Notes: generated by a model not told the origin, from the letters alone. A DNA stretch of 64,000 bases from a virus (IMGVR_UViG_3300047666_001531), one strand, 5' to 3'. Positions 1,961 to 54,110 are shown, counted from the first letter of the stretch. Program-made: numbers and translations.

Positions 1961-2360
1961 ATGCGTTATATATCTGATTGCAAGGTGTTTTGGAAAAAAC
2001 AGCCAAAACCATCATGATCAAAAAATCACCACTTATTCACTTATGTGATTAAAAATTCACTTAGACTGAATAACTAACACTTAACTATATGCTTAGTAAT
2101 CTAAAAAGCATAAAACAAGTTTTTTTTGAAAATAAAAAAATAAAATAAATCTATAAAAAACAATCAGATAACTGGTTGCCCACGAAGATAATTGTAAATA
2201 CGGTCATTTAGGTTCATTTGTGAACTGTTACGATGATTTGTGTGCCGTATAATTCGTTTCGTTAGCCGCAAAGCAGAAATGAAATTTTAAAGAAATCGTG
2301 GTTGTTATATTTTTTTGAAGTTTTATTTTCACTTGACGGAAAAAACAAAAATTGCGCTAT

Positions 2361-3418
2361 CATATGGATATGTTTGAAATGCAGGAAGCATTAATCACTT
2401 GGGTCACTAAGTGAAGCGTTTAAAACCAAAGCACAATATAACACGAGTAGGACTTACTCGTCACCTTTTGCACTCAGGATGAGTGCTATCGAATGGATTC
2501 GATACGACATAAATGGATTATGTCACAAGGAAATGTCAAATGGATTGGCATAAACCAACATAAAATGGATTTATCGCAGAACGGATATTGCGATGCTCAA
2601 GGATGGTAATGTTGGTTAAGGTTGGCATGAGGCCGGCTGTAATGGTCACCATGGAGGTGAATTCGGCAAGAAGCCGTTGATTTGTCATTATGATAAACCA
2701 TTACACAACATCAGCATGATGCAGATGTAGAAGCAAGAGCAAGATGCTCAAATCACATGATGTGATTGTCGCCATGGAGGCGTTTGCGGGTCGAGGCTTT
2801 CATGGAGAAGGTTTATGTAATAGAGCAGGGACGCTCGCCCTTACACGATGTATGGGTTCCTAGGCTGGGATTATTACAAAAATGGAGATACAAGCATGAT
2901 GCGACGTATCGAACCATTGGGCAGGACGCCTATATTGCATGATGCAGTATCGTCAGGAGACGAAATGGTTTCAGGGGTTGTTGCCAAGGAGGCGATTTCT
3001 GCAAGGATGCAGTCAACCAACATCTGCATGATGCGGATGGCGTACAGACCATTGATAGGTCAATCAACATGATGTTGTGGTCGCTAAGATGGCGAGTGTA
3101 CGCAGTAAGTGAGGCAAGGAGCCATTACGCTAAGGATAGCGTCACTTACGTCTAATTTAACGCAGCATCCAAGGATGGTTGTTGAGGGAGTTTAAAAAGG
3201 ACAAGGCAGCGATAGGATTCGCGTTTAATTATCATAGATGATAAGCCACCTACACAAGCAAGAAGCCTGTGTTGTATGACGGTCAAGGATGTTGCGCTTA
3301 ATGGATTAAGCGATCGTAATGGGATTCGAACGTCATACGAGTAAAGCTATGTGCCACACAAGTCACAAGTTAATCTAAGCTAAACGAGATAGGCACGTCT
3401 TTAGGCGTGCCTGTTTTT
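2361..3418 (+). ncRNA. CsrB/RsmB-like CsrA-sequestering RNA, unusually long (~1.05 kb)
   Basis: About 30 GGA trinucleotides, most in loops of short hairpins (e.g. GCACTC-AGGAT-GAGTGC 2470, TCACC-ATGGA-GGTGA 2646, ACGCT-AAGGAT-AGCGT 3127, CGCTTA-ATGGAT-TAAGCG 3296); no credible long ORF; candidate promoter TTGACG(2333)-19-TATCAT(2358); terminator at 3389-3418. 5' end approximate. Confidence 0.85.
3389..3418 (+). terminator. Intrinsic terminator of the CsrB-like RNA
   Basis: ATAGGCACGTC-TTTA-GGCGTGCCTGT then TTTT. Confidence 0.85.
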
Positions 3419-3435
3419 AATTCAGGATCCAGTTT

Positions 3436-3897
3436 ATGACCCAAAACACTCAAAATTCAAAAGAAAATTCATTGCCGCCTGTTGAAAACCATATTCTAAA
3501 AATGCTTTTAGGCCACACCCAACGCAGTTTGTCTGAAATTCGCAGTGGTGTTAATGAAAATAAAATTACGACATATAGCTACAATGAAATCAAAATGAAA
3601 ATATTTTCGTTGATTGAAAAAGGTTATGTTTTATATGGTGATAGAAGAACGCGTTTTAGTATAACGGACAAAGGCAAGGCTGTTGTTAGTGCTGAAAAGA
3701 TTATTGCTCACAGCAGTGATAACGAGATAATAAATGCGATCAACTCACTTAAAAGTAAAGTTTCCGTACCTGTGAAGCCAGTAGTGAGATCGCTAGAAGA
3801 TAAAGTGAGTACTCTTAAAACTGTGTCTGGTATTGCTGGTATGCCAAGCGACATCTCTCTTTTGTTAGAAGAGATATCGAAGGACATATCAGTTTAA
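3436..3897 (+). CDS. Hypothetical protein, possible winged-helix DNA-binding N-terminus
   Basis: 153 aa; helix pattern then LIEKGYVLY...RFSITDKGK, typical of a wHTH wing. Confidence 0.55.
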   Translation: MTQNTQNSKENSLPPVENHILKMLLGHTQRSLSEIRSGVNENKITTYSYNEIKMKIFSLIEKGYVLYGDRRTRFSITDKGKAVVSAEKIIAHSSDNEIINAINSLKSKVSVPVKPVVRSLEDKVSTLKTVSGIAGMPSDISLLLEEISKDISV

Positions 3898-4236
3898 TTA
3901 AATTCTTATATCGTTCAGGTTAATGCTATCAAATGCTGATTGATTGTCTTTGATAGCCATAGCCATTCTTTCTAGATAATCAGCCAATTTAAGTGCTGCC
4001 TCGCTTGCAGTAGCCTGATGCGGAAACTCTTTGTCATTTTCAATATCAATATCCAGAGATGCTTTCCATCCACGATGCTCATATTTTAAAACAGATATAG
4101 GAAGTTCAAGCGACACGCCAGATTTTGAGTGCAACCCTATAAATGTAGCTTTAAGCCCTGGCTTACAGAACGCTTCATGTCTATCACCGGTTCTTTCAAG
4201 AAGTTCCAGCTTATTTATTGTTATTAAAGTTGTCAT
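3898..4236 (-). CDS. Hypothetical protein
   Basis: 112 aa ORF, follows 4245..4544 as a likely operon. Confidence 0.65.
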   Translation of the reverse strand: MTTLITINKLELLERTGDRHEAFCKPGLKATFIGLHSKSGVSLELPISVLKYEHRGWKASLDIDIENDKEFPHQATASEAALKLADYLERMAMAIKDNQSAFDSINLNDIRI

Positions 4237-4244
4237 GGCGCTTC

Positions 4245-4544
4245 CTAAGGGAATAATTGATTTATGACAGAGCTAATCTCATCTTTGCTCACATCATTAG
4301 TGCTTAATGAGTACGAAGCTAAGTGTTCTTCTGCATCCGTATCCATGTCATCTATCTTCTGAGCAAGCAAGTCAAGTGCTGCTCTTACAATGCGATCTCT
4401 TTTAGGATTGTCATGCAATGTGTTCGTCTGAGTTACGGTAACACCTTCTTCACCGTTCAGTGAGTCAGTGACGATACGATCAATATCGTAAATTGTTTTG
4501 CCTTTCATTGAAATTTTTGCGGTTAAAACGTAATTATCTTTCAT
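4245..4544 (-). CDS. Hypothetical protein
   Basis: 99 aa ORF with GGGA RBS. Confidence 0.65.
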   Translation of the reverse strand: MKDNYVLTAKISMKGKTIYDIDRIVTDSLNGEEGVTVTQTNTLHDNPKRDRIVRAALDLLAQKIDDMDTDAEEHLASYSLSTNDVSKDEISSVINQLFP

Positions 4545-4673
4545 ACCAAATCCCTTTTGTAAATATGCCCTAATTCTAACACAAATGATGCTTTCGCCAA
4601 GGTTATTTGTTTAATTAATTACCCAAAACCAGACAGAAAACAAACAATAAAGTAAATAAATTAATAAAAAGGG

Positions 4674-4701
4674 TTGACAAAGATTGTCATTATGATAAAG
4701 T
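4674..4701 (+). promoter_or_regulatory. sigma70 promoter with palindromic operator in the spacer
   Basis: TTGACA(4674)-N4-TTGTCATTATGATAA(4684-4698); extended -10 TG-A-TAAAGT. Confidence 0.75.
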
Positions 4702-4764
4702 TAACTCATCGAAACGAAATAACTTTTAAACCCTAAATGAAAATCATGTCACAGGAGACATACT

Positions 4765-5055
4765 ATGCGTAAAACTTTAATTTTAAGTACGATCTTAGCA
4801 ACATTATCTTTATCTTTATTTGCATCAGCCCAAGCACAAGCAGCTCCCGAGTCGAAAGACGGTTGGATTACTATGTCTAGTGCCGAACGATGTGTTCATA
4901 AAAACCGTGTCACGCCTATGTACAGCTTGAATGGTGAAATGCGTAAAACACAGTGCTTCACATTACAATCGAAAAAAGATGCCACCGGTAAACGCGTATA
5001 TCAAAATGTAAGCCGTGATGGTTCGGTTACCATCAAAGGTAAGCGACTAGCATAA
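4765..5055 (+). CDS. Small secreted hypothetical protein
   Basis: 96 aa, signal peptide ending AQA, AGGAG RBS, two Cys. Confidence 0.75.
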   Translation: MRKTLILSTILATLSLSLFASAQAQAAPESKDGWITMSSAERCVHKNRVTPMYSLNGEMRKTQCFTLQSKKDATGKRVYQNVSRDGSVTIKGKRLA

Positions 5056-5287
5056 CCCCGATAACTCCGTAAAGCCCCCAAAAATAGACTGCATAATTGT
5101 GGTCTATTTTGCTTTAAGATGATAAAAACGTTCATAATTGACTTAGCACTTTTATTTTGATAACTTTATCGTGATAAAATAAAGCTGTTTAAACAGTTAA
5201 ACAAAACAACGGCTTTGGTAAAAAAGGATAGGGCAACCTTCCTACGTTTACTTGGCTTGATCAAAAACACTACATGGGAATACTAGT

Positions 5288-8200
5288 ATGTTAAATGGAA
5301 AATTTAATAAAATTGCATTATCTGTAATTTTGGCTATCGGGGTCTCCTCGGCAGCGATGGCAAATGAAACATCTTCTTCACTTCGAGGAAAGGTGCAATC
5401 AACAACAGGAGCGCCTGTAAAAGATGCGGTTGTTGTAATTGAACACACGCCAACAGGCACAAAACGAACTGTTAAACTTGATGCTAGTGGTTCGTTTTCA
5501 GCCAGAGGTCTCCGTGTAGGTGGACCTTATTTAGTGACTGTTGACTCTGACGAATTTGCCGATCAAAAAACTGAACTGTTTTTATCTTTAGGTGAAACCT
5601 CTCAGTTAAACTTTTCGCTACAACCAGATAATGTTGAGCGCATTACCGTTACAGGTAGTAATCGTCACAATATTGTTTTTGGTGATAAAAATGGTATTGG
5701 TAGTACTTACAATGAAACCGACATTGCACGTTCGCCGATGTTTGACCGCGACCTGAAAGATATCATTCGACAAAACCCGTTAGTAAATATTTCTGATAGT
5801 GATGATGGTGAAATGAGTGTTGGTGGTACTAATCCGCGATTTAACAGCATTTCTATTGATGGTGTTAAGCAGAACGATGATTTTGGTTTAAATGGCAACG
5901 GTTATCCAACCAGCGGCTCACCAATCTCTATGTTATCAATTGAACAAGTTTCAGTTGATGTTACCCCGTTCAACACACAAGCTTCAGGTTTTACCGGCGC
6001 TTCTGTTAATGCTGTAACTAAATCAGGTCGAAATGAGTTGTTTGGCGAAATGTTTTATGAATATGCTTCAGACTCTATGGCCGGCACTCCGAAAAATGAA
6101 GATGGTGAAGATATTGCACTTGATTTTGAACGTTCAACTTTTGGTGGTGCGTTAGGTGGCAAAATCATTGAAGATACATTGTTCTTCTTTGTGAGTTACG
6201 AAGAGTCTAAAAATCCGTTTGTTAATGTTTTCGGACCACAAGGCGTGGGCGCATCGAACGAAAAAGACTGGTTAGATCTTGATACTGTTGCCGAAATTCA
6301 GCGTATTTCAAGTGAAGTGTATGGTGTAGATGTTGGTGGCTTAGCAAATGGCCTGTCTAATGACAGTGAAAAATCAATCATTAAGCTTGATTGGAATATC
6401 AACGATGATCATCGTGCGGCATTGACCTATCAATTAACCGAAGATAACTCGATTAACCCTCAAAACGTTAGTCGTAGCAATAATTTCGCGTTAACAAGTA
6501 ACTGGTACAATGTTGATGCAAAAGTTGAGTCATTGGCGCTGCAAGTCTACTCGTTTTGGGGTGATGATTTAACGACTCAATTTAGCATGTCGAAAAAAGA
6601 CGTTGTGAATTCAGCGGTATCTTTTTCAGACAGCTTAAATGAGCAAAACTTAGGTCAAGCATGTATTCGTATTAATCCGACAAATGAATCGTGTAGTCGA
6701 GCTGAATCGGTGTTTGTAGGTGCGGATCCGTTCCGTCATGCAAATGATTTGGAAAACGAAACATTTGCCGTAGATTTCACGGGTGAACTTACACTTAATG
6801 ACGATCACACCTTGTCATTTGGTCTTGGTGTGGAAGAAATTGATATTTTCAACCAATTCGTGCCGTTTTCTCGTGGTACATGGGATTTTGACTCAATAGA
6901 AGATTTCGAAAACCGAAATGCCTCAAGCGTATCTTACTCTGATGCTTACACCGGCGTATCATCTGATGCTGGTTCGACTTTTAGCATTCAAAACAACCAT
7001 TTGTACATTGAAGATAAGTGGGACATCAATGATGACCTGTGGGTTAATTTTGGTGCTCGATACGAAGCGATATCTACAACAGGTGAAATTCGCCCTAATG
7101 CTACGTTTACTGAACTATATGGCAAAACAAACACAACAAGTTTAAGTGGCAAGTCTATTTTCTTACCTCGCATTGGTTTTAATTGGTCTGCGGCAGAAAA
7201 TCTTACATTGAGCGGTGGTGTTGGTCGTTACTACGGTGGTACACCGAACGTTTGGATTTCGAACTCTTACTCAAATGACGGTTTGATCAATGTTCGTGGT
7301 GATGTTGATGGTGTTGATTTAACAAATGCTGACTTCACAACCAAGCCGGTTGGTGCAACTTTAACCTCAGGTGATGGTGATACTAACTCTATTGCGAGTA
7401 ACTTTCAGTTACCAAGCGAGTGGCGTTATGGTATTACGGCAAATTACACCGCTGACTTAGGTGAGTTTTTAGGTGACAAATGGGATCTAGAAGCAAGCTA
7501 CCAGTATGTTAAAGAAAAAGATCCGGTTCAATGGCGCGAGTTATATCGTGAAACACAAGATATTGCTGTTGCTCCTGATGGACGAAATATCTATGTAGGT
7601 GTTCCAGCGTACAGTCGTGATCGTTTTGACCTTGAGTTGACCAATGGTGATAAAGGTGGTGTTCGTAAGACATTTACCCTTGCAGCATCTAAAAACTTTG
7701 AAAATGGTGTTTACCTGAATATGTCGTATGCTAACCAAGATGCGTCGAACCTTGTTCCTGGTACAAGCAGTACAGCTAACTCTAACTTTGAAAAATACCA
7801 AGTTGCAGATCGCAACAATCCTGATATTGGCCGAAGTCGCTATGAAGTTGAACATAGCTTTAAGTTTAATGTTTCATACACCAAAGAGTTCTTTGAAGGT
7901 TACGCTTCAACGTTTACTTTGCAAGGTGAAAGAAGCTCTGGTCGTCCTTACAGCTGGGTATACGCAGATGGTTATGACACCTTCGGAAGTCAGAAAAAGT
8001 TCGATGATGGTGCGTTTTTACCATATATACCAACCGGTGCTGATGATCCAAACGTGAGCTATGGTGAAGGTTATAGTTACGACCAGTTATCTGCTGTATT
8101 AAGTGAAAGTGGCCTTGATCGTTATGCTGGTGGTATTGTACCACGCAACACGGCAGATGGACCTTGGAACTCACGATTGGACTTCTTCTTTAGCCAAGAA

Positions 8201-8455
8201 ATCAAAGGCTTTAGCGAAGATCATCGCGGTATGTTCTACGTGTCAGTCAAGAACGTTTTGAACTTGATTGATAGTAGTGCTGGTAAGATTGAAGCAACTA
8301 ACTTCTTTAACAGTCGTGATTTAGTTCAAGCTGACTATGATGAGTTGACTAACACTTATGTCTACAATGAAGGTTTTAGTGATGATGCTCCTACTTATCT
8401 AGATGCTGAGCGTTCAGCATGGCGATTAAAAGTTGGTATCAACTACAAGTTCTAG
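5288..8455 (+). CDS. TonB-dependent receptor with N-terminal carboxypeptidase-regulatory-like domain (Oar-like)
   Basis: 1055 aa; signal peptide; SSSLRGKV...LRVGGPY N-domain; ERITVTG TonB-box region; plug motif NSISIDGV...NDDFGL; C-terminal INYKF. Confidence 0.9.
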   Translation: MLNGKFNKIALSVILAIGVSSAAMANETSSSLRGKVQSTTGAPVKDAVVVIEHTPTGTKRTVKLDASGSFSARGLRVGGPYLVTVDSDEFADQKTELFLSLGETSQLNFSLQPDNVERITVTGSNRHNIVFGDKNGIGSTYNETDIARSPMFDRDLKDIIRQNPLVNISDSDDGEMSVGGTNPRFNSISIDGVKQNDDFGLNGNGYPTSGSPISMLSIEQVSVDVTPFNTQASGFTGASVNAVTKSGRNELFGEMFYEYASDSMAGTPKNEDGEDIALDFERSTFGGALGGKIIEDTLFFFVSYEESKNPFVNVFGPQGVGASNEKDWLDLDTVAEIQRISSEVYGVDVGGLANGLSNDSEKSIIKLDWNINDDHRAALTYQLTEDNSINPQNVSRSNNFALTSNWYNVDAKVESLALQVYSFWGDDLTTQFSMSKKDVVNSAVSFSDSLNEQNLGQACIRINPTNESCSRAESVFVGADPFRHANDLENETFAVDFTGELTLNDDHTLSFGLGVEEIDIFNQFVPFSRGTWDFDSIEDFENRNASSVSYSDAYTGVSSDAGSTFSIQNNHLYIEDKWDINDDLWVNFGARYEAISTTGEIRPNATFTELYGKTNTTSLSGKSIFLPRIGFNWSAAENLTLSGGVGRYYGGTPNVWISNSYSNDGLINVRGDVDGVDLTNADFTTKPVGATLTSGDGDTNSIASNFQLPSEWRYGITANYTADLGEFLGDKWDLEASYQYVKEKDPVQWRELYRETQDIAVAPDGRNIYVGVPAYSRDRFDLELTNGDKGGVRKTFTLAASKNFENGVYLNMSYANQDASNLVPGTSSTANSNFEKYQVADRNNPDIGRSRYEVEHSFKFNVSYTKEFFEGYASTFTLQGERSSGRPYSWVYADGYDTFGSQKKFDDGAFLPYIPTGADDPNVSYGEGYSYDQLSAVLSESGLDRYAGGIVPRNTADGPWNSRLDFFFSQEIKGFSEDHRGMFYVSVKNVLNLIDSSAGKIEATNFFNSRDLVQADYDELTNTYVYNEGFSDDAPTYLDAERSAWRLKVGINYKF

Positions 8456-32430: not shown

Positions 32431-32505
32431 GCCGGTGTAGCTGAGTTGGTTTAGCAGCGCACTTGTAATGCGCAGACGGGAGTTCGAATCTCTCCTCCGG
32501 CACCA
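32431..32505 (+). tRNA. tRNA-Thr(TGT)
   Basis: Cloverleaf; anticodon arm GCGCA-CT TGT AA-TGCGC; encoded CCA. Confidence 0.92.
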
Positions 32506-32522
32506 ACATTATAGAAGTTTTA

Positions 32523-32612
32523 GATGAGATGGCCGAGTTGGTCGAAGGCAGCAGGCTGTTAACCTGCCGGAGTTTATCTCCCACATTGGTTCAAATCCAA
32601 TTCTCATCGCCA
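32523..32612 (+). tRNA. tRNA-Asn(GTT) with long variable arm
   Basis: GCAGG-CT GTT AA-CCTGC; V-arm GGAG/CTCC; G73; CCA. Confidence 0.88.
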
Positions 32613-32617
32613 CATTA

Positions 32618-32708
32618 GGAGGGTACTGCTGGGTAGGCTGGCAACCGGTCTTGAAAACCGGAGGATCCATGAGAATGGTTCGGCGTTCGACTCGTCTACC
32701 CTCCGCCA
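32618..32708 (+). tRNA. tRNA-Ser(TGA), 8/4 acceptor/T-stem fold
   Basis: GGAGGGTA/TACCCTCC 8 bp; T-stem GGCG/CGTC; CCGGT-CT TGA AA-ACCGG; long V-arm; G73. Confidence 0.88.
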
Positions 32709-32713
32709 CTTTT

Positions 32714-32791
32714 GCGGGGTTAGCTCAGCTTGGATAGAGTATCTGGCTACGAACCAGAGGGTCACATGTTCAAATCATGTACCCCGCGCCA
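32714..32791 (+). tRNA. tRNA-Arg(ACG)
   Basis: TCTGG-CT ACG AA-CCAGA; CCA. Confidence 0.92.
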
Positions 32792-32843
32792 ATAAGAGTA
32801 AGTAGTAAGGTGATGTAACGATCACAACAGTGTGTAGTGCAGA

Positions 32844-32920
32844 TGCGAAGTGGAGCAGTTTGGTAGCTCGTTGGACTCATAATCCAAAGGTCGCTGGTTC
32901 GAGTCCAGTCTTCGCCTCCA
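32844..32920 (+). tRNA. tRNA-fMet-like (CAT)
   Basis: 1:72 mismatch (T:C), initiator-type D arm TGGAGCAG...TAGCTCG; anticodon stem TTGGA/TCCAA lacks the third G-C pair. Confidence 0.8.
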
Positions 32921-32936
32921 ACACACAACAGTTTTA

Positions 32937-33027
32937 GGTGAGATGGCAGAGTGGCTTAATGCAGGCGACTGCTAATCGTCCGAGGTGTAAAAGCCTTGCA
33001 CAGGTTCGAATCCTGTTCTCACCGCCA
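32937..33027 (+). tRNA. tRNA-Ser(GCT)
   Basis: GGCGA-CT GCT AA-TCGTC; long V-arm; G73; CCA. Confidence 0.92.
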
Positions 33028-33038
33028 CTTTGAAAAAT

Positions 33039-33114
33039 GGGGAAGTAGCTCAGTTGGGAGAGCGGTTGCCTTGCACGCAACAGGTCGCGAGTTCGATTCT
33101 CGCCTTCTCCACCA
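33039..33114 (+). tRNA. tRNA-Ala(TGC)
   Basis: G3:U70 pair; GTTGC-CT TGC AC-GCAAC. Confidence 0.93.
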
Positions 33115-33140
33115 ATTTTTATAATTGGAAATGAAGAATT

Positions 33141-33217
33141 GGAGCGGTAGTTCAGCCGGTTAGAATGCTGGCCTGTCACGCCAGAGGTCGCGGGTTCGAT
33201 CCCCGTCCGCTCCGCCA
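33141..33217 (+). tRNA. tRNA-Asp(GTC)
   Basis: CTGGC-CT GTC AC-GCCAG; CCA. Confidence 0.93.
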
Positions 33218-33230
33218 CATAAGTGTTTTT

Positions 33231-33306
33231 GGGTTGTTAGCTCAGCTGGTAGAGCAGGTCGCTTTTAACGATCTTGTCGGTGATTCGAATTCACCACAAC
33301 CCACCA
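33231..33306 (+). tRNA. tRNA-Lys(TTT)
   Basis: GGTCG-CT TTT AA-CGATC; CCA. Confidence 0.92.
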
Positions 33307-33314
33307 GTTTATGT

Positions 33315-33390
33315 ACAGGTTTAGCTCAGTTGGGAGAGCACCGTCCTTACAAGGCGGATGTCGCAAGTTCGATTCTTGCAACCTGTACCA
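33315..33390 (+). tRNA. tRNA-Val(TAC)
   Basis: CCGTC-CT TAC AA-GGCGG; CCA. Confidence 0.92.
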
Positions 33391-33400
33391 ACTTTGGAAT

Positions 33401-33476
33401 ACCAAGATAGCTCAGTTGGTAGAGTAATGGATTGAAAATCCATGTGTCACTGGTTCGAACCCAGTTCTTGGTACCA
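33401..33476 (+). tRNA. tRNA-Phe(GAA)
   Basis: ATGGA-TT GAA AA-TCCAT; CCA. Confidence 0.92.
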
Positions 33477-33492
33477 CAATTAGGTTTAAAGT

Positions 33493-33568
33493 GTCCCTAT
33501 CGTCTAGCGGCCTAGGACACCGCCCTTTCACGGCGGTAACAGGGGTTCAAATCCCCTTAGGGATACCA
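33493..33568 (+). tRNA. tRNA-Glu(TTC)
   Basis: CCGCC-CT TTC AC-GGCGG; CCA. Confidence 0.93.
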
Positions 33569-33582
33569 CTTTGATTTTTAAT

Positions 33583-33670
33583 GGAGTACGCGCAGTGACG
33601 GAACGACTGCACCGGACTGTAAATCCGGAGCCTCAGGCATATCCCTGTTCGAATCAGGGGTGCTCCACCA
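33583..33670 (+). tRNA. tRNA-Tyr(GTA)
   Basis: CCGGA-CT GTA AA-TCCGG; long V-arm; atypical D arm; CCA. Confidence 0.88.
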
Positions 33671-33700
33671 ATTTTATTTTTTTTTTGAGAGGGTAGTGTT

Positions 33701-33748
33701 ATGAAAAGACGAATACGTGGGCGAATACGAAATATAAATAACGTATAA
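33701..33748 (+). CDS. Putative 15-aa minigene MKRRIRGRIRNINNV inside the tRNA operon
   Basis: GAGAGGG RBS, ATG 33701, TAA 33746; rich in AGA/CGA/ATA codons. Confidence 0.5.
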   Translation: MKRRIRGRIRNINNV

Positions 33749-33749
33749 A

Positions 33750-33825
33750 TGCCCTATAGCTTAATGGTTAAAGCGCAAACCTCATAAGTTTCGAGATGGG
33801 ATTTCGATTATCCCTGGGGCAACCA
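33750..33825 (+). tRNA. tRNA(CAT), probably Ile2 (lysidine-type)
   Basis: CT CAT AA loop; C4-G69/C5-G68 as in TilS substrates; one anticodon-stem mismatch. Confidence 0.7.
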
Positions 33826-33857
33826 TTTAGCAGTAAATTCAGTTTAATAGTTTTAAT

Positions 33858-33932
33858 GACTCGTTAGCTCAGTCTGGATAGAGCAAGTCCCTTCTAAGGA
33901 TTTGGTCGCAAGTTCGAATCTTGCACGAGTTG
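33858..33932 (+). tRNA. tRNA-Arg(TCT), no complete encoded CCA
   Basis: AGTCC-CT TCT AA-GGATT; followed by CC then tRNA-Gly. Confidence 0.9.
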
Positions 33933-33934
33933 CC

Positions 33935-34008
33935 GCAGCGTTGGTATAGTGGATGTGCCTCTGGTTTCCAACCAGATGACGCCAGTTCGATTCTGGCACG
34001 CTGCTCCA
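33935..34008 (+). tRNA. tRNA-Gly(TCC)
   Basis: TCTGG-TT TCC AA-CCAGA; U73; CCA. Confidence 0.88.
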
Positions 34009-34034
34009 TTTTTTAATAAAGCAAGGTAAATGTA

Positions 34035-34151
34035 ATGAAGAAAAAAGTACAAAAAAGAGTGCGGAGTCAGTTTTTTGATAAATCAAAGCGCACAAGTGAA
34101 GCACAAACAGATGCGGTAAAACGCCAAGAAAGAAAAACGTTTGTGTCCTAG
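34035..34151 (+). CDS. Possible 38-aa basic small ORF within the tRNA operon
   Basis: AAGGT RBS-like site, ATG 34035, TAG 34149. Confidence 0.3.
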   Translation: MKKKVQKRVRSQFFDKSKRTSEAQTDAVKRQERKTFVS

Positions 34152-34170
34152 TAGTTGTTAACATTTTTAT

Positions 34171-34246
34171 CGCGAAGTAGCTCAGTTGGTAGAGCAGTCC
34201 CTTCATATGGGATTGGCCAGTAGTTCAAGTCTACTCTTCGCGACCA
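34171..34246 (+). tRNA. tRNA-Met(CAT), elongator
   Basis: Fully paired CGCGAAG/CTTCGCG; GTCCC-TT CAT AT-GGGAT. Confidence 0.82.
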
Positions 34247-34250
34247 CCAT

Positions 34251-34326
34251 AGCGGTATAGCTCAGTTGGTAGAGCACACCCCTGATAAGGGTGAGGTCAC
34301 TGGTTCAAATCCAGTTTCCGCTACCA
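34251..34326 (+). tRNA. tRNA-Ile(GAT)
   Basis: CACCC-CT GAT AA-GGGTG; CCA. Confidence 0.92.
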
Positions 34327-45763: not shown

Positions 45764-48700
45764 ATGCTGACAAAAAAACTCACCTTAGGAATAATGGCTG
45801 CTTTATATGGTGCTGGAACAGCCTATGCAACAGAGCCAACCAACCCATACATATACAAGCCTTTTGGCCTAAAGCCATTAAGTCAGGCAGTTGTGCCGGA
45901 CTGGGAAAAGAAAAACAGTGAGTACACTGCTTGGCAAAACGAAGGTGCTGTTTATAACTGTTCAGCTTGGACACCGCCTGAAAATGTCGTTAATCTAGAT
46001 GAAGAATTTACGCAAAGCCGCGAATGTTCTCAAAGTCAATCTAGAACCCGAACTGATGAAATGTATTCTCAGCGCCTTGATCAAACTCGCTATGAAGGAC
46101 CATTTGGTGAATCAAGAGTTATCACTGTTGAAGAAAGTCAAGATTCAGTAGGTACGCGAGATTATATTACCGGTGAACGTGAAGATGCTTACCCTAATTG
46201 GTCTAAGGTAGGTGGTTTCTACGGTTGTGGAAGTTGGTCACCTGATCCATCTGAAATTAATTATGGCGCAACATTTACTCAAGAGCGAGATTGTTCTTGG
46301 GATGAAGATCGTCAACGAAATGTATTTAATACATGGCAGTCTGGTCGTGAAACGTATAACCGTACTGATTCTGAAGGTAGAACTGTGCCTTATACAGATT
46401 CACGAGAATCTACGGGCACGTATCGTGATTGGCAACCAACGTCATCGACTTATACGGCTTGGGAAGATGTAGGTACAGATCATTCTCATACTTCATGGTC
46501 ACCAGCGCCAAGCACTCAGCCGTCAGATTTCACACAATCACGTGAATATAAGCGTGATCAAGAGCGATATGAACAAAAGCGTGAGCAAGATCAGGTAACC
46601 GATGATTACCGTAATACAGGTTCGCCGGTATTACATGAACAAACGGTAGATCGAAGTGAAGATCGAGATGTTACTGTTGATTATACCTCTTGGGAAGAAG
46701 TGAATCGTAGTGCTTATACGTCATGGTCGCCTGCGCCGACTGTTCAAACAGCATCATACAATCAAACTCGAAATTACACGCTTACAGAAGAACGTGAACG
46801 TTCTTATACTGCTGCGGGTGATGGTGAATTACTAACGGCAACAGAAAGTCGCGATACGGTAGAACAAACAGAATCACGTCCTGTTACTGTGACGTATACG
46901 TCATGGGAAGAAACAGGCACCAATTATGACTGTGGCACCTGGGCACCGGCTAGAGACACTGTAGGTGTTGATGAAGCCTACACTCAAACGCGCTCATGTA
47001 AGCAAGATGAAGTTCGCGATCGTGTTTACACTAATGAATCAACAGAATTAAATCGTGTTGAAGAAGGTCGTACATTAACACCAACCCAAAGCCGTGCACA
47101 AACAGGTGAGGGTAGCTGGGTTACTCATGATTCGACATTTACCAGCTGGGAAAATGAAGGTTCTCGTTACGGTTACACCGCGTGGTCTCCTGTATCTTCT
47201 AATCAAAAATCCGATTTCACTCAAAGTCGTGACTTCAAACAAAATGAAACACGAAATGAGCAAGAGCGTGAACGTGATATTCATTCTGGTACTATTCGAA
47301 ATGTAGGAGAACCTATCAAACGCGACCGCACCGTTTCTGGTGAAGAAAGTCGTAGTGTTGTAGTTAACTTAGGTAGTTGGTCTGATACCACGCGAAGTGC
47401 AGAAACATCATGGTCACCGGCACCGTCTAATCAAACAACTGGTTTTACTCAGTCAATGGGTTATACGCAGCATCAAGCTCGCACAGTGGTGCACAATGCA
47501 CCATCTGAGGTGCACCGCTTTACAGATACGCAAGCGTTAGTAAACCAAACAGACACACGTCCTGTTTCAGTTTCTTTTAGTGAATGGTCAAACAGCGGCG
47601 CAATAAAAAATTGTGGTGGTTGGAGTCCTGCTGAGAACACTGTAGCGTATAATGAATCTTACACTCAAACACGCGAGTGTGATCAAGACCAAGTTAGAAA
47701 TCGTTCTTACCGTGCTGATGGTAGTGTACTTAATACCTTCGTAGAAAACAGAACTGTTAAGGTTAATGACACTCAAAATGCTACAGGTACAGGTAACTGG
47801 GTGGCGCATGCTTCAACGTTTACGTCATGGATAAATAGTGGTGGTCGTCATACTTATAGTAGTTATTCACCAACACCTACTACCCAAACAACTACATTTA
47901 GTCAGTCTAGAAGCTACAAGCAAAACCAGACTAGAAATGAGCAAAAACGCGAACGCGACACTATCGGTGGTTCAATCCGTAATGTTGGCTCTCCAATTGC
48001 TCGCTCACAAACTATCAATGGTAGTGAGTCTAGAAATGTAACTGTTGCTTGGTCTAGCTGGTCAAATAGCGGCGGTAAATACTCATGTGGTGCTTATAAT
48101 AACCCTCATGGAAATCAGACTGCAAGCTACACTCAAACACGCGTTTGTAAGCAAAATCAAACTCGAACACGTACTTATTCATCGGGTGAGAGCTTTAGTG
48201 AATCTAAAGTTATCAACTCAAATGATTCACGTACAGTAACGGTGACTGTTGGTGGTTGGTCGAACACTTCAACATCAGGTCATTCTTCATGGTCGCCTGC
48301 GGCTAGTTCTCAAACGAGTAACTACTCTCAATCAAGAAGCTACACTCAGACACAACGTAGAGTGTGGACGCATAAGGTTGGTAGTACAACGGTTCACACG
48401 CGCAACGAAGATCGTAATTTGACGGGTCAAACTCAGTCTCGTTCAATTACTGTGACCAATGCTGCTGGTGCTTACGGCTCTAACTACGGTTACGGTTCAT
48501 GGTCACCAACACCGACTAGTCAGACTGCAACGTTTACGCAAACACGCGGTTACAAGCGAGATAGAACAAGAACGTATACTCATAAATCGGGTACTACGAC
48601 TATTCACACTCGCGGCGTAACAGAAACCGGTAACTTTAGTCAGTCAAGAAATGTGACGGTGAGTTGGTCTAGCTGGGCAAATAGTGGTGCTAAGTATTCA

Positions 48701-49996
48701 TGTGGGGCGTACAACAACCCTTATGGCAGCCAAACTGCAAGCTACACTCAAACACGCGTTTGTAAGCAAAACCAAACTCGAACACGTACCTATTCATCGG
48801 GTGAAAGCTTTGGTGAAAGTCGCACTGTGAATGCAAATGACTCACGTACTGTGACGGTGACTGTTGGTGGTTGGTCGAATACGTCAACATCAGCTCACAC
48901 AGCATGGTCGCCTACGGCTGGATCACAAACAAGTAATTATTCGCAGTCGCGAAGCTACACTCAGACACAACGTAGAGTGTGGACGCATAAAGTTGGAACT
49001 TCAACGGTTTATACCCGAAATGAAGATCGTAACTTGACGGGTCAAAGTCAGTCTCGTTCAATTACTGTGACCAATGCCGTAGGAGCTTATGGTTCAAACC
49101 ATAGTTACGGTTCATGGACACCAGCAGCGAGTGCGCAGACATCTAACTTTAGCCAAACTCAGTCTTATAAGCGTAACAGAACAAGAACGTATACTCATAA
49201 ATCGGGTACTACGACTATTCACACTCGCAGCGTGACAGAAACGAGCAACTTTAGTCAATCACGTTCTGTGGCAGTTAGTTGGTCAACGTGGGTTAATAAT
49301 GGCACGGCAACTTGTGGAGGCTGGTCTAAAGATGCTAAAACTGGAGCTAAGACAAGATCATGTAGTCAACCAGAGAAACGTACTCGTACTTACAAGGTTG
49401 GTACTTCGACTATTCACTCTGCTACTGAAACGAAAAATCGTAGTTACTCAGAGACGATAACGGTTACGGGTACGACTTATGGTTCTTGGTCAGGTTATTC
49501 GAATCAAGGTTCGCCATACGATTGTTCTGCTTCTTGGTCGCCTGCTGCTAGTACAGTAGAATCAGGTACTACATTTACTCAGTCTAGATCGTGTAAGCAA
49601 AATCAACGTAGACAGCGCAATAAATACACAACCTACTCTGATGGTTCACAAGATTATGTTGGTCTTGACTACGGAACGCGCATTATTACTGTGTACCAAA
49701 CAAGACAGGCCACTGGGACAAAGATAACTGAGGAGTGTTATACAGGTGGTTATGAGTATAGATCAGACTACGGTTATGAGAACGGCGATTATTGTGATAT
49801 TGAATATGAAATCTGGCGTTTTAATGGAGTTACGATTTACAAATATAATTTTGATGAGTGTCGTGGTGGTAACAGATACGAGTATTCTCCAGGAACATTT
49901 AGTGGTCGTGACACTTATTTATATAATGGTTACAAATACACCTTGAAAAATGTGGTCAATGGCTATCAAGGAGATGTTTGTAGAGTGCCACAGTAA
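45764..49996 (+). CDS. Giant secreted Trp/Cys/Thr-rich repeat protein (TSP1-like repeats), copy 2
   Basis: 1410 aa, AAGGA RBS, signal peptide ending AYA, same repeat grammar, distinct C-terminal domain. Confidence 0.8.
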   Translation: MLTKKLTLGIMAALYGAGTAYATEPTNPYIYKPFGLKPLSQAVVPDWEKKNSEYTAWQNEGAVYNCSAWTPPENVVNLDEEFTQSRECSQSQSRTRTDEMYSQRLDQTRYEGPFGESRVITVEESQDSVGTRDYITGEREDAYPNWSKVGGFYGCGSWSPDPSEINYGATFTQERDCSWDEDRQRNVFNTWQSGRETYNRTDSEGRTVPYTDSRESTGTYRDWQPTSSTYTAWEDVGTDHSHTSWSPAPSTQPSDFTQSREYKRDQERYEQKREQDQVTDDYRNTGSPVLHEQTVDRSEDRDVTVDYTSWEEVNRSAYTSWSPAPTVQTASYNQTRNYTLTEERERSYTAAGDGELLTATESRDTVEQTESRPVTVTYTSWEETGTNYDCGTWAPARDTVGVDEAYTQTRSCKQDEVRDRVYTNESTELNRVEEGRTLTPTQSRAQTGEGSWVTHDSTFTSWENEGSRYGYTAWSPVSSNQKSDFTQSRDFKQNETRNEQERERDIHSGTIRNVGEPIKRDRTVSGEESRSVVVNLGSWSDTTRSAETSWSPAPSNQTTGFTQSMGYTQHQARTVVHNAPSEVHRFTDTQALVNQTDTRPVSVSFSEWSNSGAIKNCGGWSPAENTVAYNESYTQTRECDQDQVRNRSYRADGSVLNTFVENRTVKVNDTQNATGTGNWVAHASTFTSWINSGGRHTYSSYSPTPTTQTTTFSQSRSYKQNQTRNEQKRERDTIGGSIRNVGSPIARSQTINGSESRNVTVAWSSWSNSGGKYSCGAYNNPHGNQTASYTQTRVCKQNQTRTRTYSSGESFSESKVINSNDSRTVTVTVGGWSNTSTSGHSSWSPAASSQTSNYSQSRSYTQTQRRVWTHKVGSTTVHTRNEDRNLTGQTQSRSITVTNAAGAYGSNYGYGSWSPTPTSQTATFTQTRGYKRDRTRTYTHKSGTTTIHTRGVTETGNFSQSRNVTVSWSSWANSGAKYSCGAYNNPYGSQTASYTQTRVCKQNQTRTRTYSSGESFGESRTVNANDSRTVTVTVGGWSNTSTSAHTAWSPTAGSQTSNYSQSRSYTQTQRRVWTHKVGTSTVYTRNEDRNLTGQSQSRSITVTNAVGAYGSNHSYGSWTPAASAQTSNFSQTQSYKRNRTRTYTHKSGTTTIHTRSVTETSNFSQSRSVAVSWSTWVNNGTATCGGWSKDAKTGAKTRSCSQPEKRTRTYKVGTSTIHSATETKNRSYSETITVTGTTYGSWSGYSNQGSPYDCSASWSPAASTVESGTTFTQSRSCKQNQRRQRNKYTTYSDGSQDYVGLDYGTRIITVYQTRQATGTKITEECYTGGYEYRSDYGYENGDYCDIEYEIWRFNGVTIYKYNFDECRGGNRYEYSPGTFSGRDTYLYNGYKYTLKNVVNGYQGDVCRVPQ
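48035..49270 (+). repeat. Internal tandem duplication of ~615 bp (~205 aa) in copy 2
   Basis: Block starting ...WSSW(S/A)NSG(G/A)KYSCGAYNNP... occurs at ~48035 and ~48650 with high nucleotide identity; boundaries approximate. Confidence 0.85.
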
Positions 49997-53718: not shown

Positions 53719-53792
53719 TGGAGCACCATACGGAGTCGAACCGTGTAACTAGGGTTGCAATCTAGCGCCTTACCAAACTCGGCCAATAGTGC
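53719..53792 (-). tRNA. tRNA-Cys(GCA)
   Basis: GCACTAT/ATGGTGC; TT GCA AC loop; U73; CCA. Confidence 0.88.
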
Positions 53793-53850
53793 ATTAAACT
53801 TTTCTTGTTCTTTATTTAAACTCTAAACACATTTCCTACGGTTTATGTAT

Positions 53851-53927
53851 TGGTCGGTGATGCAAGATTCGAACTTGCGACCCCTTCGCCCCAAACGAAG
53901 TGCGCTACCAGACTGCGCTAATCACCG
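53851..53927 (-). tRNA. tRNA-Pro(TGG), copy 2
   Basis: CGGTGAT/ATCACCG; CTTCG-TT TGG GG-CGAAG; CCA. Confidence 0.93.
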
Positions 53928-53956
53928 ATAACCGATAACCGATAACATAAAAAAGG

Positions 53957-54031
53957 TGGAAGGGGGAGGGGATTTGAACCCGCCGCACTGTCAGTCAAAG
54001 TGACATGCTCTACCAATTAAGCTATCCCCCC
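53957..54031 (-). tRNA. tRNA-Gln(TTG), bulged T-stem
   Basis: TGTCA-CT TTG AC-TGACA; T-stem 3' strand one nt short; CCA. Confidence 0.8.
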
Positions 54032-54033
54032 AT

Positions 54034-54110
54034 TGGTCGGTGATGCAAGATTCGAACTTGCGACCCCTTCGTCCCAAACGAAGTGCGCTACCAAACTGCG
54101 CTAATCACCG
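54034..54110 (-). tRNA. tRNA-Pro(TGG), copy 1
   Basis: CTTCG-TT TGG GA-CGAAG; two differences from copy 2. Confidence 0.93.

Follow-up and report, generated by a model that had tools for sequence, protein, structure and literature searches.

GGA-rich hairpins in a noncoding stretch of the window

We analyzed a noncoding stretch carried by the element recorded as virus IMGVR_UViG_3300047666_001531, of which one strand of 64,000 nucleotides (nt) was examined; this whole length of DNA is referred to as the window. The noncoding body occupies positions 2260 to 3418 of the + strand and is flanked by two genes, one ending at 1919 and the other starting at 3436, which makes it intergenic. A preliminary description, prepared from the sequence alone, had pointed here to a noncoding stretch closed by a terminator and containing ~30 GGA motifs. 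This much held up, as 32 GGA were counted and no credible open reading frame (ORF) was found between 2260 and 3418. The largest ORF between the flanking genes encodes 74 amino acids (aa), and neither it nor the other small ORFs matched Pfam, so a coding or pseudogene reading was ruled out. G+C content rises from ~0.29 in the flanking spacers to 0.45 to 0.48 within the stretch. The best explanation, and in our judgment a probable one, is that 2260 to 3418 gives rise to an abundant + strand noncoding RNA of ~1.05 to 1.16 kb (the window RNA), the length depending on the start.

The GGA motifs are strongly biased toward one strand. Between 2333 and 3418, GGA occurs 32 times on the + strand versus 2 on the − strand, and A.GGA occurs 23 times versus 0; motif counts in the same interval are 7 for AGGAT, 10 for ATGGA, and 9 for AAGGA. 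The density of A.GGA or AGGA reaches a maximum of 18 per 400 nt on the + strand, with 0 to 1 on the − strand, and is the highest in the window, as is the GGA density of the 1-kb segments located here (30 versus a mean of 8.0, standard deviation 4.2). The sites also share a sequence context: of the 32, 23 have A at −2, 25 have A or U at −1, and 17 have U at +3, giving A(N)GGAU; frequent forms are AAUGGAUU, CAAGGAUG, and CAUGGAGG. The consensus for CsrA binding obtained by systematic evolution of ligands by exponential enrichment (SELEX) is RUACARGGAUGU, which the context of the sites fits. Successive GGA sites are mostly 12 to 40 nt apart, so a single CsrA dimer could bridge two of them. ANGGA presented in a loop is a recognized type of CsrA/RsmA site (PMC7366521, PMC9928087).

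Local folding was evaluated by counting hairpins whose stems reach 4 bp or more and whose loops measure 3 to 9 nt, with 200 dinucleotide-preserving shuffles as the control. GGA lies in the loop of 17 of the 30 hairpins found, compared with 1.9 ± 1.3 in the shuffles (maximum, 5) and 0 on the − strand, and the local folding energy is −295 kcal/mol versus −212 ± 10 kcal/mol in the shuffles. Ensemble accessibility gives GGA a mean unpaired probability of 0.70, whereas other bases average 0.33 and GG[CGU] averages 0.28, and 24 of the 32 GGA are predicted to be mostly unpaired. The preliminary description had placed at least 20 GGA in the loops of stems that differ in sequence. Under the strict loop definition the number falls short of this, whereas it stands if exposed sites are counted, and the hairpins do have unrelated stems. 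Because the stems vary between GGA hairpins while the loops are preserved, the sites show the pattern expected if they are read in RNA and not in DNA.

The sites are arranged in three clusters, all on the + strand. Cluster A (2443 to 2660) has 11 GGA sites, most with unpaired probabilities of 0.7 to 1.0, and includes six perfect 7-bp hairpins (2443-2461, 2470-2486, 2487-2504, 2506-2524, 2533-2551, and 2646-2660) with GGA, UGGA, AUGGA, or GGACU loops. Cluster B (2776 to 3035) has 11 GGA interleaved with hairpins of a second class, CA-UGA-UG, which are considered below, and cluster C (3101 to 3335) has 9 GGA, with hairpins at 3127-3142, 3166-3177, 3209-3222, and 3295-3312. Degenerate internal repeats, including D1, D2, D4, and D5, suggest that the window RNA grew by duplicating small modules.

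Presence in RNA libraries and transcription signals

Contigs from four RNA-type runs, belonging to three studies, are confined to 2440 to 3381 (2440-3105, 2462-2837, 3203-3381, 2478-2772, 2867-3069, 2611-2822, and 2951-3119), with none on 1500 to 2400 or 3420 to 4500. One of these runs, a metatranscriptomic run flagged "probably DNA," contains a 666-nt contig at depth 50. From one additional run, whose library type is unknown, came a single 1043-nt contig (2290 to 3332) at depth 123 with empty flanks. Two probable DNA metagenome runs cover the RNA stretch and its flanks evenly, at depths of 3 to 6. The runs were located with the RNA stretch itself as the query, and their library labels are partly guesses; in a control search with the neighboring 5 kb (3436 to 8455), no RNA run carried it. 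Within the limits of these libraries, the stretch behaves as an abundant RNA spanning at least 2290 to 3332. As to a check proposed earlier, for a transcript of ~1 kb, the stretch is present in RNA libraries, the flanks are absent, and the single long contig comes from the run of unknown library type.

Two promoter candidates were found on the + strand. P1 has a perfect −10 element, TATAAT (2248 to 2253), with a weak −35 and a predicted start at ~2260. P2 (2333 to 2363) consists of TTGACG (2333-2338) and TATCAT (2358-2363), with a predicted start at ~2370, and was not called by a consensus scan because its spacer is 19 nt. The promoter put forward in the preliminary description is therefore present in its two elements, although with that long spacer and without a call; the same TATCAT −10 also occurs in a Colwellia chromosomal csrB-like gene. 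Since the 1043-nt contig begins at 2290, 43 nt upstream of P2, a start at or before 2290 is favored for at least some transcripts, and both promoters may be in use. A perfect inverted repeat, GTTCA-N4-TGAAC (2212 to 2225, +), has its center ~41 bp upstream of the predicted P1 start, occurs nowhere else in the window at 0 mismatches, and is a possible regulator site.

At the 3′ end, the terminator claimed earlier was confirmed as an intrinsic terminator on the + strand (3386 to 3418), whose core stem, 3391-3397 paired with 3406-3412, is followed by GTTTTT (T-run, 3414-3418). The gene beyond it encodes a protein of 153 aa (3436 to 3897, +; entry 3422 to 3897) and has its ribosome-binding site within CAGGAUC (3422 to 3428), a CsrA-type motif. 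The protein shows a weak match to DUF4364 and may be winged-helix-like, a suggestion from look-alikes of its predicted structure that serves as a lead only; the gene may act locally as a regulator of the RNA gene, or it may be targeted by CsrA. This arrangement raises the alternative that the whole stretch serves the 153-aa gene as a leader of great length, responsive to CsrA, with the gene expressed by read-through of the terminator. The gene lies on the same strand, 18 nt past the terminator, and the CsrA-type motif at its ribosome-binding site would suit such a leader. The terminator is strong, however, the RNA-library contigs end at or before 3381 and leave the gene uncovered, and a leader of 1.1 kb with more than 30 sites lacks precedent, so we regard this alternative as very unlikely. 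Both flanking proteins, of 153 and 199 aa, returned only near-identical copies from IMG/VR, the plasmid collection, and a set of 5.8 billion proteins.

Comparison with chromosomal csrB-like RNAs and the favored function

To provide a chromosomal reference, we used 80 control loci (~1.6 Mb) from a search for relatives of a nearby TonB-dependent receptor. These loci come mostly from Colwellia and other Alteromonadales, and the best receptor match, at 66% identity, is in a Colwellia metagenome-assembled genome (MAG). A motif-density scan of this DNA picked only two regions, L022:13455-13940 and L002:17285-17775 (−), each a csrB-like gene of ~0.49 kb with 24 to 25 GGA and a terminator. A third csrB-like gene, with 26 GGA and a terminator, was reached by a pattern search for the UvrY/GacA box in three Colwellia genomes; it is chromosomal in Colwellia sp. 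RE-S-Sl-9 (L215:1686-2195). With their upstream boxes, the three comparators span L215:1501-2195, L022:13269-13940, and L002:17285-17953 (−); the boxes, compared by eye with the consensus, range from perfect (L215) to slightly degenerate. The context A(N)GGAU is common to the window RNA and all three chromosomal RNAs, and the same folding test places GGA loops in 10 to 13 of 15 hairpins in L022 and L002. TonB-receptor homologues near the csrB-like RNAs of L022 and L002 were considered as a sign of synteny, but the order differs and L027 and L028 are coding there, and the proximity was treated as coincidence. Canonical CsrA is encoded by relatives. In the Colwellia MAG, the sole CsrA-family match is a divergent 68-aa ORF (27 bits; L207, G001:C14:50198-50320, −), which may be a paralogue, or the canonical csrA may be missing from an incomplete assembly.

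Taken with the folding and library results, these comparisons lead us to favor, as the probable reading, an element-borne and probably Gac-independent CsrA-sequestering RNA that works like CsrB/RsmB. Kulkarni et al. 2006 (PMC1488887) gave sequence criteria for CsrA-sequestering RNAs. Four of the five are found here (intergenic position, one-strand motifs, terminator, and GGA loops), and the fifth, the UvrY/GacA box, is lacking. The sequences of the window RNA and the chromosomal RNAs show no collinear similarity. Whole hairpin words are nevertheless identical in the window RNA and the Colwellia chromosomal RNA (AGUAGGACUUACU, AUAUGGAUAUGU, GUCAGGAGAC, and CUAAGGAUAG), and the shared words of 9 to 13 nt, hairpin-sized and not collinear, include AGTAGGACTTACT, ATATGGATATGT, GTCAGGAGAC, and CTAAGGATAG. 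The rate of word sharing between these two is lower than among the chromosomal RNAs themselves, and convergence could account for the words, since few sequences are open to a short palindrome built around AGGA.

Several observations weigh against the CsrA-sequestering reading. As the preliminary description had already noted, no clear UvrY/GacA box (TGTRAG-N6-CTYACA) lies within 350 bp upstream of the window RNA. The best site (2044 to 2061) has 3 of 12 mismatches, and sites with 3 mismatches are no commoner than chance; a 4-mismatch site at 2191 to 2208, recognized by eye, stands at the position expected for P2. All three chromosomal comparators, by contrast, have the box 170 to 177 bp upstream. 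The window RNA is also more dilute, with 28 GGA per kb versus ~50 per kb in the chromosomal sponges. It is ~2.3 times as long but has only ~1.3 times as many GGA (32 versus 24 to 26), so the word "oversized" used for it earlier applies to its length (~1.05 to 1.16 kb versus ~0.5 kb) and not to its capacity. About one third of it consists of non-GGA hairpins, which a plain sponge would not need. On the side of expression, of the four RNA-type runs, two are recorded as RNA (poly(A)-selected in one case) and the other two are tiny "metatranscriptomic" runs flagged "probably DNA," the library type of the run with the 1043-nt contig is not on record, and contigs yield no strand, ends, or abundance. 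All runs and contigs with the stretch are 99.9 to 100% identical, leaving no variants from which conservation or covariation could be read.

Homology searches add to the points on this side. A match to the CsrB/RsmB covariance models had been named as a check, and it did not come out: with Rfam (CsrB, RF00018; CsrC, RF00084; clan CL00106), no family matches the window RNA at the gathering threshold, and its best score is to CsrC, at 14.5 bits versus a threshold of 61 (E value, 0.11). The chromosomal csrB-like RNAs are missed as well, none reaching gathering and CsrB scoring 23.7 and 28.3 bits versus 71. Because box-bearing chromosomal csrB-like RNAs fail too, the failure of the window RNA is weak evidence against the class, and standard annotation with Rfam CsrB misses the chromosomal csrB of Colwellia and its relatives. 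Searches with blastn found no homologue of the window RNA in 401 genomes of the Alteromonadaceae-level family of the Colwellia MAG, nor in plasmid and phage collections; a single 40-nt match in G001 falls in a coding region and was set aside as chance. Missing matches are expected for such an RNA, since among 12 genomes of one family BLAST detects chromosomal csrB itself in just 3. On the tests run, the window RNA is not a demonstrable member of the CsrB/CsrC sequence families. What stands of its description as CsrB/RsmB-like is the anatomy (one-stranded, ORF-free, with exposed A(N)GGA loops and a terminator), and what does not is recognizable homology to CsrB, RsmB, or CsrC.

The same features must also be weighed for a structured noncoding RNA of another function, such as a mimic of ribosome-binding sites that engages the 30S subunit, a base-pairing sponge, or a member of a large RNA class. 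The window RNA is large and modular, and seven of its sites are GGAG or GGAGG, one of which is GGAGGUGA, complementary to the 3′ end of 16S rRNA. The A at −2, the U at +3, and the short loops are, however, the signature of CsrA and not of a ribosome-binding site, and at E values up to 10 no Rfam family, including GOLLD, ROOL, HEARO, and OLE, was recovered, the one relevant match being CsrC. We consider a function of this kind quite unlikely.

Under the favored CsrA-sequestering reading, host CsrA dimers would be captured, as they are by CsrB/RsmB, on some two dozen accessible A(N)GGA(U) motifs, of which short hairpins present 17 in their loops, and production of the RNA would release CsrA-repressed host mRNAs. 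By analogy with other bacteria, the released mRNAs would promote storage carbon, exopolysaccharide, and biofilm and act against motility. Because there is no UvrY/GacA box, the output would probably be set outside the BarA/GacS-UvrY/GacA cascade, possibly by the element itself. We infer CsrA binding, a stoichiometry of roughly 8 to 16 dimers, and the physiological effect.

Known systems show both likenesses and differences. Escherichia coli CsrB is ~369 nt long, and Vibrio CsrB1/B2 are ~416 to 420 nt with 21 motifs (PMC1488887). Like RNAs of the CsrB/RsmB type, the window RNA is intergenic, has motifs biased to one strand, presents A(N)GGA(U) in the loops of short unrelated hairpins, ends in a terminator, shows signs of growth by internal duplication, and contains hairpin words identical to those of the Colwellia RNA. 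Unlike them, it is 2 to 3 times longer with about half the site density, lacks the UvrY/GacA box and collinear similarity, and lies on an accessory element with six CA-UGA-UG hairpins and an operator copy. In Pseudomonas aeruginosa, RsmV and RsmW are Gac-independent Rsm sponges (PMC7366521); they are similar in their GacA-independent transcription and in having probably arisen independently of RsmY and RsmZ, but they are chromosomal and short, have few sites, and bear no sequence relation to the window RNA. RsmQ, a CsrA/RsmA homologue encoded by plasmid pQBR103 (PMC9928087), likewise represents the intervention of a large conjugative plasmid in the host Csr/Rsm network. It acts on the protein side, however, and adds a repressor, whereas the window RNA would be an antagonist, of the opposite sign.

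In the literature searched, the RsmQ paper included, plasmid- and phage-borne CsrA proteins are described and we found no earlier report of a sponge RNA on a mobile element. Transcription factors are a known means by which plasmids alter host regulation, and pQBR103 does so with a CsrA-family protein, of which a sponge RNA would be the mirror image. If the favored reading is true, a mobile element would have a cheap, protein-free means of lifting CsrA repression throughout the host, which could shift, for example, to exopolysaccharide, biofilm, or storage metabolism independently of its own BarA/GacS signal, and the window RNA would exceed in length every Csr/Rsm-type sponge described. Because metatranscriptomes show the RNA, and the whole stretch is contained in one run labeled as a single organism, a test at the bench may be feasible.

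A second hairpin class, an internal operator, and the surrounding element

Six hairpins on the + strand (2708-2728, 2751-2767, 2887-2910, 2932-2950, 3021-3039, and 3065-3077) share an invariant CA-UGA-UG apex on differing stems. CATGATG occurs in the stretch 6 times on the + strand and 0 times on the − strand, and the apex is unpaired with a probability of 0.78 to 0.99. These hairpins resemble CA-GGA-UG hairpins with the first G changed to U, and they sit in duplicated modules; they may be inherited spacers, weak sites, or sites of a second ligand. The motif is absent from the three chromosomal csrB-like RNAs. A metagenome scan with the CA-UGA-UG module pattern was unspecific, giving 120 unrelated single matches, none of them GGA-rich or similar.

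This second class hints at a new RNA-protein pair, and it brings in the possibility that the main partners of the RNA are the element's own RNA-binding proteins, for which it would be a decoy or scaffold, or that it is a dual sponge coupling CsrA to a second factor. Candidate partners are a plasmid CsrA paralogue of the RsmQ kind and a protein that reads the CA-UGA-UG hairpins. The six apices, invariant on differing stems, all on one strand, all exposed, and missing from the chromosomal sponges, would suit such a role, and plasmids are known to carry CsrA homologues binding to GGA loops (PMC9928087). A signature search of the window, however, found no CsrA-like ORF, no protein is known to read such a UGA triloop, and part of the likeness of the six copies is explained by shared descent, since they lie in internally duplicated modules. 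We judge this possibility, taken with its candidate partners, to be rather unlikely.

The preliminary description had also reported an operator of the element's own type inside the gene, and this proved correct: the 15-bp palindrome TTGTCATTATGATAA at 2682 to 2696, not assigned to a strand, is an exact match of the copy at 4684, which is embedded in a TTGACA promoter. The internal copy has no −35 alongside and is crossed by RNA-library contigs; in RNA it would fold into a hairpin of 7 bp closed by a UUA loop. With the repressor bound, it could act as a block to transcription, or it could just be another RNA hairpin, and control by the element through this intragenic site is only a possibility. 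A second perfect palindrome within the RNA, TTATCA-TAGA-TGATAA at 3229 to 3244, is operator-like with a center of 4 nt instead of 3 nt.

The two palindromes bear on the alternative that the stretch acts as DNA, in the form of an array of protein sites such as iterons, a centromere, or operators. An exact operator copy and a related palindrome are what such an array might contain, but the loops of the hairpins are conserved while their self-complementary stems vary, both motif classes are strictly one-stranded, the + strand folds better than the − strand (−354 versus −307 kcal/mol), and the stretch is over-represented in RNA libraries. A role as DNA is, in our view, extremely unlikely.

The CsrA-sequestering reading can be extended to a hub with two ligands, in which ~24 GGA would soak up CsrA, the six CA-UGA-UG hairpins would bind a second factor, and a plasmid-wide repressor at the intragenic operator would set the length or amount of the RNA. 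This extension is speculative, and we hold it to be improbable as a whole. If it were true, the timing of host CsrA release would be in the hands of the element instead of the host Gac/Bar cascade.

The element is virtually identical across many sea-ice and seawater assemblies; metagenomes of sea ice and polar seawater show it to be widespread and near-clonal. Its replicon is probably a large plasmid, as suggested by a 1410-aa orphan protein (45764 to 49996) without Pfam domains whose relatives occur only on large plasmids, namely, pMPPla107 of Pseudomonas amygdali and IncC/MOBH Vibrio plasmids of 306 to 370 kb. Rfam CsrB has no match in pMPPla107 and two IncC Vibrio plasmids, which are distantly related, the RsmZ and RsmY models gave nothing above threshold in pMPPla107, and the chromosomal csrB-like queries have no match in the plasmid collection. 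Other cargo of the window includes ribonucleotide reductase, NAD-dependent DNA ligase, a 5′-3′ exonuclease, three DNA methylases, many orphan genes, and tRNA arrays at 32431 to 34323 and 53722 to 54110 (16 and 4 genes by Rfam). The gene for the TonB-dependent receptor (5288 to 8455) has its closest match in the Colwellia MAG (L001) without flanking genes in common and looks like cargo from a Colwellia-type chromosome. The pMPPla107 homologue of the 1410-aa protein (L216, 217195-220228) adjoins a gene for RNA 2′-phosphotransferase.

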